From Escherichia phage EcF-vB: a stretch of DNA of 64,000 nt. The stretch's first letter is position 1. The number at the start of each line of letters is the position of its first letter. Positions 38,623 through 39,707 of this stretch are shown here, piece after piece. The DNA is taken from sequence record PV683228.1; one strand, written 5' to 3'. Under the pieces are notes generated by a model. It searched no databases and was not told the origin of the DNA. It was given only the letters and a program-made list of their open reading frames with translations. The position numbers and the translations under genes were made by a program.

Positions 38623-38717
38623 GTGAAAGAGGTCTGAAGTTGTGCCGCTAACTCAACTCCGTGGAATTTGTTACGGTCTTCAGTTGACACCAGCGGTCTT
38701 TCACTTGACCTCTGAAT
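38623..38717 (-). ncRNA. structured non-tRNA RNA candidate within tRNA array
   Basis: ~95 nt between two tRNAs with perfectly complementary termini AGAGGTC...GACCTCT and internal CTGAAG/CTTCAG pairing; no T-arm; conserved at 62215..62309. Confidence 0.35.
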
Positions 38718-38794
38718 TGGTGCTGCTCACAGGACTCGAACCTGCATTTCCATCCTTACAAGGGATGTGTAATAGCCAATTATACGAAAGCAGC
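38718..38794 (-). tRNA. tRNA-Thr (anticodon TGT)
   Basis: acceptor GCTGCTT/GAGCAGC, anticodon stem CATCC/GGATG loop CUUGUAA, T-arm GCAGG-TTCGAGT-CCTGT. Confidence 0.8.
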
Positions 38795-38801
38795 ATTAAT
38801 T

Positions 38802-38876
38802 TGGAGCATCCAGAGGGAATCGAACCCTCAACCTCAGTTTGGAAGACTGTAATTTTCCCGTTTAAACTATGGATGC
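38802..38876 (-). tRNA. tRNA-Gly (anticodon TCC)
   Basis: acceptor GCATCCA/TGGATGC perfect, anticodon loop CUUCCAA, T-arm GAGGG-TTCGATT-CCCTC. Confidence 0.75.
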
Positions 38877-38882
38877 ACTAAT

Positions 38883-38958
38883 TGGTGGAGAAGCAGGGAA
38901 TTGAACCCTGTACTTAAGTTTGCAAAACTTATGTTTTAACCATGTAAACTACATCCCC
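38883..38958 (-). tRNA. tRNA-Ala (anticodon TGC)
   Basis: acceptor GGGGATG with G3.U70 wobble (Ala identity pair), anticodon stem TAAGT/ACTTA loop UUUGCAA, T-arm CAGGG-TTCAATT-CCCTG. Confidence 0.7.
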
Positions 38959-38964
38959 AATGTT

Positions 38965-39040
38965 TGGTACAGGTGGAGGGAATTGAACCCATCGTCTTAC
39001 TGATTAAGAGTCAGCCGCATAACCATTTTGCTACACCTGC
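38965..39040 (-). tRNA. tRNA-Lys (anticodon CTT)
   Basis: acceptor GCAGGTG/CACCTGT, anticodon stem GCTGA/TCAGT loop CUCUUAA; T-stem only 3 GC pairs. Confidence 0.65.
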
Positions 39041-39047
39041 ATTAATT

Positions 39048-39124
39048 TGGTACACCTAGAGAGATTCGAACTCACACTGAGCAGATTCTAAGTCTGCTGC
39101 CTCTACCAGTTGGGCTATAGGTGC
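39048..39124 (-). tRNA. tRNA with Leu anticodon TAG, short (5-nt) variable loop
   Basis: acceptor GCACCTA/TAGGTGT, perfect anticodon stem GCAGA/TCTGC loop CUUAGAA, T-loop TTCGAAT, discriminator A. Confidence 0.65.
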
Positions 39125-39381
39125 ATTAAATCTTTTTAGAGAACTTCTAAGAACCTAAGCAACAAGGTTCCACAACAAGCTGTAATAACCTTAGAAGCCC
39201 TCTAAAAAGACCTAAAAAGGTCTCTGCATAGTCTTGTTTAATCCGGTGACTAGAGCCTTTGGAGAGCTTGATATTATCTCTTCTCCGTGACACCTACTAG
39301 GTGCTTTATTAGTGTGTACGACAATACACGAGGGATACCAAAGCAACATCCGAATGAAGCTTGGTTTTAAATCTTATTAGG

Positions 39382-39469
39382 CGGTAAGTAAAGGAGTCGA
39401 ACCCTCACCGTATCTCTACAGTGGCAACTGTTTTCAAGACAGTTTGGCTACCATTAGCCGCTACCTACC
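39382..39469 (-). tRNA. tRNA-Ser (anticodon TGA), type II
   Basis: acceptor GGTAGGT/ACTTACC, anticodon stem ACTGT/ACAGT loop CUUGAAA, long variable arm, T-loop TTCGACT; CCA not encoded. Confidence 0.7.
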
Positions 39470-39482
39470 CCTAATAAGACTT

Positions 39483-39565
39483 TGGCATGGGACGGAGGAG
39501 TTGAACCCCTTTGAAACGGTGTTGGAAGCCGTTGCTCATGCCTTAGAGTCTTAACATCGTCCCAT
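39483..39565 (-). tRNA. tRNA-Trp-like (anticodon CCA), enlarged D region (tentative)
   Basis: acceptor ATGGGAC/GTCCCAT perfect, discriminator G, loop UUCCAAC flanked by ACGG/CCGT; 83 nt with ~6 extra nt between acceptor and anticodon stem. Confidence 0.45.
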
Positions 39566-39707
39566 ACTATAATTCGAAGCTTACCGTATTATCTCAACAC
39601 TGTAAAGCCCCTTCTCAGATTATTTACATGTTCTGGAAAACATGAGATACAGACCACCTCCCTACAGGAAGACCCGCTTAGGTCGTCTAAGTAATCTGCT
39701 AACTAAT

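Follow-up and report, generated by a model that had tools for sequence, protein, structure and literature searches.

Structured non-tRNA segments in the tRNA array of Escherichia phage EcF-vB, including a candidate processed small RNA

Arrays of transfer RNA (tRNA) genes in phages are now studied as counter-defence tools, while the spacers within them are ignored by annotation. The nearest described precedent for something other than a tRNA in such a cluster comes from phage T4, whose annotation places two small stable RNAs, rnaC (species 1, 139 nucleotides (nt)) and rnaD (species 2, 119 nt), immediately behind tRNA-Arg on the same strand; both are reportedly released from a common precursor by the tRNA maturation machinery. 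The present analysis concerns three structured segments, S1, S2 and S3, lying between tRNA genes of Escherichia phage EcF-vB, in a 64,000-nt stretch of record PV683228.1 that is referred to below as the window. We lean towards the view that all three are functional structured non-tRNA parts of a polycistronic array transcript, and that each is of a different kind. Among them, S1 makes a good candidate for a small RNA released by processing, and would represent a new family, so far unannotated, of the type described in T4.

A second described system that bears on this locus is that of the Ro60 protein and its Y RNAs. Bas63 gp130, a homologue of the protein encoded immediately upstream of the EcF-vB array, is reported in a preprint to be Ro60-like and to counter the ppl defence, and the same preprint guesses that some of the downstream 'tRNA genes' of Bas63 are Y RNAs, none of which is named (PMC11482910). 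Thermus phage phiLo has Yrl1 and Yrl2 (PMC12135203), and the classical Ro-binding motifs are GNCGAAN0-1G in bacteria and GGUCCGA in animals (Chen et al. 2014, PMC4201824).

The window is Felix O1-like phage DNA: its stretch 38200-40400 is matched at 80-99% identity by 304 phage records, nearly all of them from Felix O1-like myoviruses of Escherichia, Salmonella, Shigella, Citrobacter and Erwinia. From 36343 to 41472 the minus strand carries 26 tRNAs called by ARAGORN; S1, S2 and S3, read here on that same strand, fall between them. The three gaps named in the original prediction are real: their coordinates were upheld by ARAGORN, and each segment folds better than shuffled sequence, with z-scores (throughout from comparison with shuffled sequence, for these three with 200 shuffles each) of -2.96 for S1, -3.80 for S2 and -2.41 for S3, and with 1, 1 and 0 of the 200 shuffles as good, respectively. 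The Rfam search that had been proposed alongside structure prediction found no family for S1, S2, S3 or the element E4 introduced below, whether over the whole array or in short slices and even with lax filters, and the extra calls made by ARAGORN with relaxed scores or with introns allowed were all spurious. In annotated relatives the three gaps carry no annotation. Co-transcription of the segments with the tRNAs is very likely because they lie on the transcribed strand of a tightly packed array. The proposal that they are small RNAs co-transcribed and processed with the tRNAs is well supported for S1 by its anatomy, conservation and compensatory changes; S2 and S3 are not single small RNAs.

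S1 lies between tRNA-Thr (38718-38794) and tRNA-Val (38548-38622). Its ends are perfectly complementary, as had been noted (on the plus strand, AGAGGTC at 38628-38634 and GACCTCT at 38707-38713), and in the tRNA sense it folds at -30.7 kcal/mol. The stem formed by these ends, P1, begins 4 nt past the CCA of tRNA-Thr and stops 5 nt ahead of tRNA-Val +1, and because of this spacing ordinary tRNA maturation could be enough to release S1. Cleavage by ribonuclease (RNase) P at the 5' end of tRNA-Val, together with 3' trimming behind tRNA-Thr, would leave a free, hairpin-closed RNA of ~90 nt, and S1 would then be a discrete RNA gene of ~87-95 nt closed by a 7-base-pair (bp) acceptor-like stem. Should S1 indeed be released by tRNA processing, it would be a new phage non-coding RNA, and both Bas63 and Felix O1 are genetically tractable.

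The segment is present in 259 phage records, the Salmonella-typing phage Felix O1 among them, and is unannotated in every one. Its identity is 93-100% across Felixounavirus, Mooglevirus and Suspvirus and 81-83% in six Av-05-type Vequintavirinae (Avunavirus). Metagenomes (JGI/ENA) gave 48 exact 18-mer matches, and a covariance model of S1 (R1) confirmed 21 of them, on as many contigs; the other 27 are not S1 by the model, and from a rough estimate of our own of the collection size we take them to be chance matches. In IMG/VR the invariant S1 core is confined to the same phage groups, and the absence of any match to it across 185,579 bacterial and archaeal genomes argues that S1 has no host homologue. 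As a conserved unit, S1 begins with AGAGGUC and ends with GACCUCU. Thus defined, S1 is 100% identical in phage pinkbiff (L001), against 91.9% for the whole 247-nt Thr-S1-Val block, and in Av-05 and TH18 it is the only recognisable part, placed 2 nt past a tRNA-Gly and 33 nt ahead of an open reading frame (ORF). Judged on these alignments, S1 is conserved as a unit, independently of its neighbours, with a conservation score of 0.974 compared with 0.899 and 0.966 for the flanking tRNAs.

A gene for a DUF7338 protein (window 37703-38260, minus strand; 4347-4904 in loci L034 and L035) lies 40-450 nt past S1 in Ounavirinae and in Av-05-type phages, and its product is a predicted membrane protein with 80% amino acid identity between the two groups. 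RB43-like phages and one Erwinia-type phage have the DUF7338 gene without S1, and R1 gave no S1 match in the Erwinia-type Ounavirinae or RB43-type loci that share this gene. The distribution suggests that S1 and the DUF7338 gene moved together. Two further identities for S1 were considered and dropped: its 25-amino-acid GTG ORF lacks a start codon in Av-05, and a kink-turn or 4.5S-like RNA was dismissed by eye as the defining motifs are absent.

Two helices of S1, P1 and P2, are common to every fold model, and compensatory change is found in both. One G-C pair of P1 has become U-A in the Av-05 clade and G-U in one contig; in P2, G20-C74 is replaced by A-U in the Av-05 clade and, independently, G24-C71 by A-U in contig CYGL01000008.1; a second contig, L197, has the intermediate state, G-U. 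The double-sided changes derive from at least two independent events. The 28-nt core (Table 1) is identical in Felix-type and Av-05-type copies, while the rest of S1 differs by ~18%, and its invariance extends over paired and unpaired bases in all lineages. This points to a sequence-specific contact, and the core would be the working part of the RNA, most likely as a recognition surface for a protein or RNA partner.

The remainder of S1 can be folded in two ways, given that AGUUG (S1 positions 60-64) is complementary to CAACU both at 32-36 and at 76-80. In the minimum-energy rod, 31-36 pair with 60-65; this fold is 96.7% paired, and three pairs have changed on both sides. For Av-05, its energy exceeds the minimum free energy by 5-8 kcal/mol. 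The alternative is helix II, in which 100% of cells are paired, with one compensatory pair and three one-sided changes. Its loop carries the 3' strand of P2 and would therefore form a pseudoknot with that helix, and the resulting fold is 98.3% paired with four pairs changed on both sides, a result reached by 4 of 500 shuffles. The pseudoknot places helix II immediately 5' of the 3' strand of the closing stem, with a loop that pairs with the D-arm region; by the model, it would have a tRNA-like outline without any tRNA consensus. The earlier statement that S1 has no T-arm holds insofar as there is no GTTCRANNC loop, but a covarying 7-bp helix sits exactly at the T-arm position.

These features allow S1 to be compared with two known kinds of RNA. 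Like rnaC and rnaD, S1 is a non-tRNA gene set head-to-tail among tRNAs that share its strand in a phage tRNA cluster, and in both systems a homing endonuclease gene is found in the cluster. The likeness does not extend to sequence or structure, and R1 finds nothing in the T4 locus (L065). S1 is also shorter and lies inside the array, whereas rnaC and rnaD are at the cluster end, and S1 is known here from sequence alone. To a class II tRNA it is similar in its 87-nt length, 7-bp terminal stem, array-typical spacing and a helix II loop that pairs with the D region, but it lacks the T-loop consensus, a D stem and an anticodon loop with U33. ARAGORN did not call it under any setting used, and a 121-nt slice gave no match to the Rfam tRNA clan at E<=10. 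It is conceivable, but quite improbable, that S1 is an exapted descendant of a class II tRNA in which the acceptor-like stem still stacks on helix II while the anticodon and variable part were replaced by the 28-nt core, released by the tRNA maturation enzymes and serving as a mimic or decoy for a host factor that reads tRNA shape. Candidates for such a factor include defence nucleases that target tRNAs and enzymes of tRNA processing or modification, and the pairing of AGUUG may act as a switch. If this were true, Felix O1-type arrays would hold at least two classes of tRNA mimic, namely S1 and the Ro60-linked YrlA-like elements described below.

S2, between tRNA-Ser(tga) and tRNA-Leu(tag), is of another kind. 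Hairpin A, nearest to tRNA-Ser, is hypervariable in sequence, and all 19 of its 19 distinct variants fold at -7 to -15 kcal/mol, usually with a U-rich tail, so that it could be a 3'-end or terminator-type hairpin. The near-invariant core that follows hardly varies even in Moogle- and Susp-type phages. The hairpin named in the original prediction was located as hairpin B; its stem of 6 bp, with three G-C pairs, is kept while its loop varies in sequence and length. Hairpin C carries compensatory changes that distinguish the Felix-type from the Moogle/Susp-type versions. The minimum helix length for E. coli RNase III is ~20 bp. As a near-perfect, covarying double-stranded RNA of 20-30 bp between units of one transcript, hairpin C resembles the hairpins cut by this enzyme and is long enough (>=20 bp) to be a candidate site, judging from the predicted fold alone. 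Taken as a chain of separate hairpins and not as a single small RNA, S2 would act as transcript punctuation, with one hairpin on the 3' side of tRNA-Ser, a second, smaller one with its U-tract and, ahead of tRNA-Leu, a long double-stranded stem suited to RNase III. A coding role for S2 was rejected: each of its two ORFs either has a non-conserved start, within hypervariable hairpin A, or is interrupted by indels of 1-2 nt.

Long hairpins resembling C recur at 39785-39850, before tRNA-Arg(tct), and at 40354-40502, before tRNA-Lys(ttt). Together with 39125-39209 (all on the minus strand), they have closing stems of 16-30 bp, z-scores of -5 to -6 and ends of the form AAAGAU(A/U)..UUAAU, and each immediately precedes the first tRNA of a sub-cluster. 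The recurring layout suggests a common processing signal.

S3, between tRNA-Arg(tct) and a tRNA-Trp-like gene, is near-invariant over its 3' 100 nt even in Moogle-type phages, in which the 5' 45 nt are replaced. A sigma-70-like match ends 3 nt ahead of the tRNA-Trp-like gene; it is weak, since such matches are no commoner in this region than in shuffles. S3 is better read as a structured leader to an atypical tRNA-Trp, one that may include a promoter. Its 7-codon ORF after GGAGG was rejected as coding, being frameshifted in pinkbiff.

The gene downstream of S3, at 39483-39565, had been taken implicitly as a tRNA in the original prediction, an assumption that the standard tools do not bear out: ARAGORN makes no call, and the highest-scoring member of the Rfam tRNA clan, tRNA-Sec, reaches 16.9 bits where 47 is the gathering score. 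The anticodon CCA, G73 and A1-U72 are identity elements for tryptophanyl-tRNA synthetase. All three are found here, the anticodon within the loop CUUCCAACA (CCUCCAAAA in most relatives), along with an encoded CCA end. What sets the gene apart is ~8 extra nt between the acceptor stem and a 3-bp D stem. Three stems show compensatory change, the D stem from CUC/GAG to CAC/GUG, the T stem from GGGG/CCUC to UGGG/CCUA and the anticodon stem from AACGG/CCGUU to GUAAG/CUUAC, and in four related loci (L003, L017, L042 and L049) the same slot holds a tRNA-Trp called by ARAGORN. Trp is the sole amino acid without an ARAGORN-called tRNA in the array. By its sequence features the gene is probably an atypical tRNA-Trp that completes the array to 20 amino acids, a twentieth specificity that standard tRNA finders miss.

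Immediately upstream of the array lies the gene for a 471-amino-acid protein of PHROG 850 ('RNA-binding protein'). Searches of the PDB by sequence, with the protein as well as with its profile, found nothing, and it was only fold comparison that gave Ro60. An AlphaFold model built with 36 homologues (predicted local distance difference test, pLDDT, 84.9; predicted template modelling score, pTM, 0.85) has as its top 12 PDB matches only Ro60/TROVE structures, the Ro60 of phiLo among them, all over the full length at E 3e-8 to 7e-7, with TM-scores of 0.41-0.65 that are at least 0.54 in 10 of the 12. The protein is therefore predicted to have a Ro60-like fold (TROVE ring and vWA), and among its homologues are mycobacteriophage proteins that carry the annotation 'Ro-like RNA binding protein'. 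A literature search on DUF2828 returned nothing relevant.

Four elements of the array downstream of this gene, E1 to E4, are paralogous. They share a closing stem of the form NNC-AGA-AGACCNNN...NNNGGUCU-G-GNN followed by (U/A)(A/C)CAGCAA. E4, the largest, is composed of a closing stem, a V arm, a T arm (GAAGG-UUCGAUU-CCUUC), a D arm (GUGU-AAUGGUA-GCAC) and a tetraloop-closed acceptor-like hairpin of 7 bp, which occurs in three fully different versions and is always paired. When 75 loci that encode Ro60-like proteins of 39-47% identity were searched with a covariance model of E4 (R2), 27 of them gave matches, 36 in total at E<=1. All 36 are on the strand of the Ro60-like gene and many abut it, although a few of the weakest are partial and overlap tRNAs. 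Across these loci the closing stem covaries freely, while UU(U/A)CAGCAA, the T arm, the D arm and the 3' CUG are conserved. The minus strand of the array has no exact match to either GNCGAAN0-1G or GGUCCGA. None of the related records examined annotates the elements, Rfam has no match for them, and a literature search found no description of them. On this comparative footing, E1 to E4 are concrete candidates for Y-RNA-like RNAs beside a Ro60-like gene; with these candidates named, and with the family recurring on the same strand beside homologous genes in many unrelated phages, the idea of Y RNAs in the Bas63 array becomes directly testable. In one phage (L044, IMGVR_UViG_2706796742_000001), E4 is cut off behind its T arm, and what follows is a tRNA 3' end (…GGTTCGATTCCCTCCACTTCTACCA), which looks like recombination between the T arms of a Y-like element and a tRNA. 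Copies of the E-type elements are also found at 60212-60435 on the plus strand, in the right arm of the inverted duplication discussed below.

Table 1. Coordinates of the segments S1 to S3, their parts and neighbouring features in the window, with the basis of each assignment
Feature	Position	Strand	Basis
S1, 95-nt gap with 87-nt structured module AGAGGUC...GACCUCU	38623..38717	-	ARAGORN gap; fold; comparative
S1 P1 5' strand AGAGGUC, acceptor-like 7-bp closing stem	38707..38713	-	pairs with 38628-38634
S1 P1 3' strand GACCUCU, then UUCAC, then tRNA-Val +1	38628..38634	-	comparative
S1 P2 5' strand G.CCGC, S1 positions 20 and 22-25	38693..38698	-	pairs with 38644-38648
S1 P2 3' strand GCGGC, S1 positions 70-74	38644..38648	-	comparative
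S1 invariant core GUCAACUGAAGACCGUAACAAAUUCCA(C), S1 positions 30-57, includes CUGAAGACCGU	38661..38688	-	alignment
S1 helix II, GGAGUUG (58-64) / CAACUUC (76-82), T-arm position	38636..38660	-	covariation
S1 duplicate in inverted right arm	62215..62309	+	identical, hence uninformative
S2, 255-nt composite spacer, tRNA-Ser(tga)/tRNA-Leu(tag)	39125..39379	-	ARAGORN gap; fold
S2 hairpin A, just 3' of tRNA-Ser, hypervariable sequence	39337..39365	-	variant folding
S2 near-invariant core, ~117 nt, three small hairpins	39215..39331	-	alignment, 28 distinct sequences
S2 hairpin B, AGACCU-UUUU-AGGUCU then U5 = AGACCTAAAAAGGTCT	39208..39223	-	comparative
S2 hairpin C, 22-bp stem extendable to ~30 bp, ends 5 nt ahead of tRNA-Leu(tag)	39130..39209	-	z -4.97
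S3, 140-nt structured spacer, tRNA-Arg(tct)/tRNA-Trp-like gene	39566..39707	-	fold, alignment
Sigma-70-like match TTGAGA-17-AATTAT, weak, 9/12	39569..39597	-	promoter scan
Atypical tRNA-Trp-like gene, 83 nt	39483..39565	-	identity elements, compensatory changes
E4, candidate YrlA-type permuted tRNA mimic	40503..40633	-	fold, covariation, R2 175 bits
E3, short Y-RNA-like hairpin CAGAAGACC...ACAGCAA...GGUCUGG	40647..40720	-	R2 34 bits, E 2e-6
E2, short Y-RNA-like hairpin, tRNA-Met/tRNA-Asn	41077..41136	-	R2 49 bits
E1, short Y-RNA-like hairpin, tRNA-Glu/tRNA-Met	41231..41303	-	R2 45 bits
Gene for 471-amino-acid DUF2828+DUF7788 protein, immediately upstream of array	41638..43053	-	AlphaFold and PDB fold comparison

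With such a system next door, S1 itself could be a Y-RNA-type ligand of the phage Ro60-like protein, a fifth member of the Ro/Y set that tethers or gates in the manner of YrlA/YrlB. In the window the protein gene is on the same strand and 2.9 kb upstream, inside the ~4 kb described for Y RNA genes; at 87-95 nt with paired 5' and 3' ends, S1 falls within the 80-130 nt, paired-end description of a Y RNA; and the Bas63 array has been speculated to contain Y RNAs (PMC11482910). Further, CUGAAGACCGU of S1 matches the invariant 5' motif of E1 to E4 at 10 of 11 positions, and all eight occurrences of CWGAAGACC in the window are in the array and on the transcribed strand, where 1.2 were expected. The shared GAAGACC, however, lies in a part of the stem that covaries freely in distant relatives, and S1 has neither YrlA-type T and D arms nor UUNCAGCAA, the motif conserved across the Y-like family, nor either classical Ro-binding motif, having only GGUCAAG. 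R1 found no S1 near 75 other Ro60-like genes, and R2 with filters off gave no meaningful match on S1, S2 or S3, which by the model are outside the Y-like family. The link was rejected as the leading explanation after a check of the complete Av-05 genome (120,938 bp), which has S1 but, by tblastn and profile search, no Ro60-like gene, and no E-type element either; S1 therefore does not require the phage Ro60-like protein. We consider a role as Ro60 ligand quite doubtful, while the sharing of CUGAAGACCGU with E1 to E4 may reflect common descent. A further possibility is that S1, S2 and S3 are passive structured spacers which prevent tRNA misfolding and give nucleases entry, and which are degraded after cleavage without any function of their own. 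Nearly all other long spacers of the array likewise fold as closed stems with z-scores of -3 to -6, an observation that counts for the leading explanation too, and S2 and S3 consist of several independent hairpins. An insulator needs structure and not sequence, yet the S1 core, unpaired bases included, is invariant across ~18% divergence, and hardly any variation is seen in the S2 core or over the 3' 100 nt of S3. In Av-05, moreover, S1 has moved to, or survived in, another context, in which an ORF and not a tRNA is its downstream neighbour. A purely passive role for the three segments is therefore regarded as unlikely.

Decay and action at the DNA level fare worse. S1 could be a decaying class II tRNA pseudogene, and the tRNA-Trp-like gene likewise dead: the length of S1, its acceptor-like stem, its tRNA-typical spacing and the helix at the T-arm position recall a tRNA, its 3' strand is followed by UUCA and not NCCA, and the tRNA-Trp-like gene fails both ARAGORN and the Rfam threshold. 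A tRNA origin of S1 is indeed possible, but decay is not indicated by the evidence, as S1 is at least as well conserved as the tRNAs beside it and its changes are compensatory and not random, and as the tRNA-Trp-like gene keeps its identity elements and CCA end with compensation in three stems; this explanation is very improbable. Hardly more credible is the notion that the three segments act as DNA, whether as targets or insertion sites of HNH homing endonucleases or as recombination sites. HNH genes do occur in these spacers in relatives (Michonne, PHB11 and Felix O1), and inverted repeats could form cruciforms. In the Citrobacter phage Michonne, however, the HNH gene sits exactly between the S2-like spacer and tRNA-Leu(tag), outside the hairpins, no insertion lies within S1 among the records examined, and the compensatory changes involve intermediate G-U pairs, which form in RNA alone and only on the tRNA-sense strand.

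The reading of S1, S2 and S3 as functional parts of the array transcript, with S1 as a candidate processed RNA, has to be set against a number of observations that weigh against it. In Felixounavirus all sequence, protein-coding genes included, is 93-98% identical, so that conservation within this genus discriminates little, and few lineages contribute to the covariation of S1: the Av-05 clade and L161, besides some isolated changes. These data do not separate the rod from the pseudoknot, and a two-state S1 RNA is possible. By energy the opposite strand of S1 folds equally well; the tRNA-sense strand is nevertheless favoured because every one-sided substitution gives G-U there and would give C-A on the other. 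S1 has no encoded CCA and no T-loop of any kind. Sequences complementary to its loop show no enrichment within the window, and no partner or target was found for its core, which would equally suit a passive spacer. A consensus terminator scan called neither hairpin A nor hairpin B, and the promoter matches, as noted for S3, are not in excess over shuffles. No relevant paper emerged from literature searches on small RNAs of Felix O1 or on transcriptomes of Felixounavirus.

Conservation of the segments in the 'right arm' of the window had been offered as evidence in the original prediction, but it carries no information. ARAGORN calls a further 18 tRNAs on the plus strand at 60579-63664, and the regions 37414-49235 and 52041-63517 form an inverted duplication of ~12 kb that is ~100% identical in genes and spacers alike and is interrupted solely by 1-3-nt offsets between matching blocks. 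In related phage records the array is single-copy; the plus-strand tRNA set is thus not an independent copy, and its conservation is uninformative on selection. As relatives carry one copy, the duplication has the appearance of a chimera from assembly or amplification, or of a snap-back molecule. It has a unique centre of ~2.8 kb around 50640, and the right arm is ~1.06 kb shorter than the left, lacking the tRNAs from Asp through Pro together with E1 and E2. Two copies of S1 are likewise found in metagenome contig CYGL01000008.1 (102,764 bp).

Elsewhere in the array, the three best sigma-70-like matches are TTGACA-17-TATAGT (11/12) at 40077-40105, in the 336-nt spacer upstream of tRNA-Arg(tct), and two at 41499-41528 and 41591-41619 between the Ro60-like gene and tRNA-Pro, all on the minus strand; their positions suggest that the array may comprise several transcription units. 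Three minus-strand tRNAs, tRNA-Leu(tag) (39048-39124), tRNA-Arg(tct) (39708-39784) and tRNA-Ile (40121-40195), have a mean identity of only 65-78% to their copies in 22-24 related loci, while the tRNAs neighbouring them are 97-100% identical to theirs. The low values may reflect allele replacement near homing-endonuclease insertion sites, or may be an artefact of per-position scoring. HNH genes inserted in array spacers were seen in BPS15Q2 as well as in PHB11, Felix O1 and Michonne (L036 2136-2588). Finally, the 114-nt spacer between tRNA-Leu(caa) and tRNA-Arg(acg) (38355-38468, minus strand) contains GAGGAG followed 5 nt on by an ATG that opens a 35-codon ORF extending into tRNA-Arg(acg) and encoding a very basic peptide, MSNNSIAKRFRASYLNRRKNKVCEKLYGVLVGKQD. 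This spacer is present in about one third of the related loci, and in Michonne a coding sequence is annotated there.

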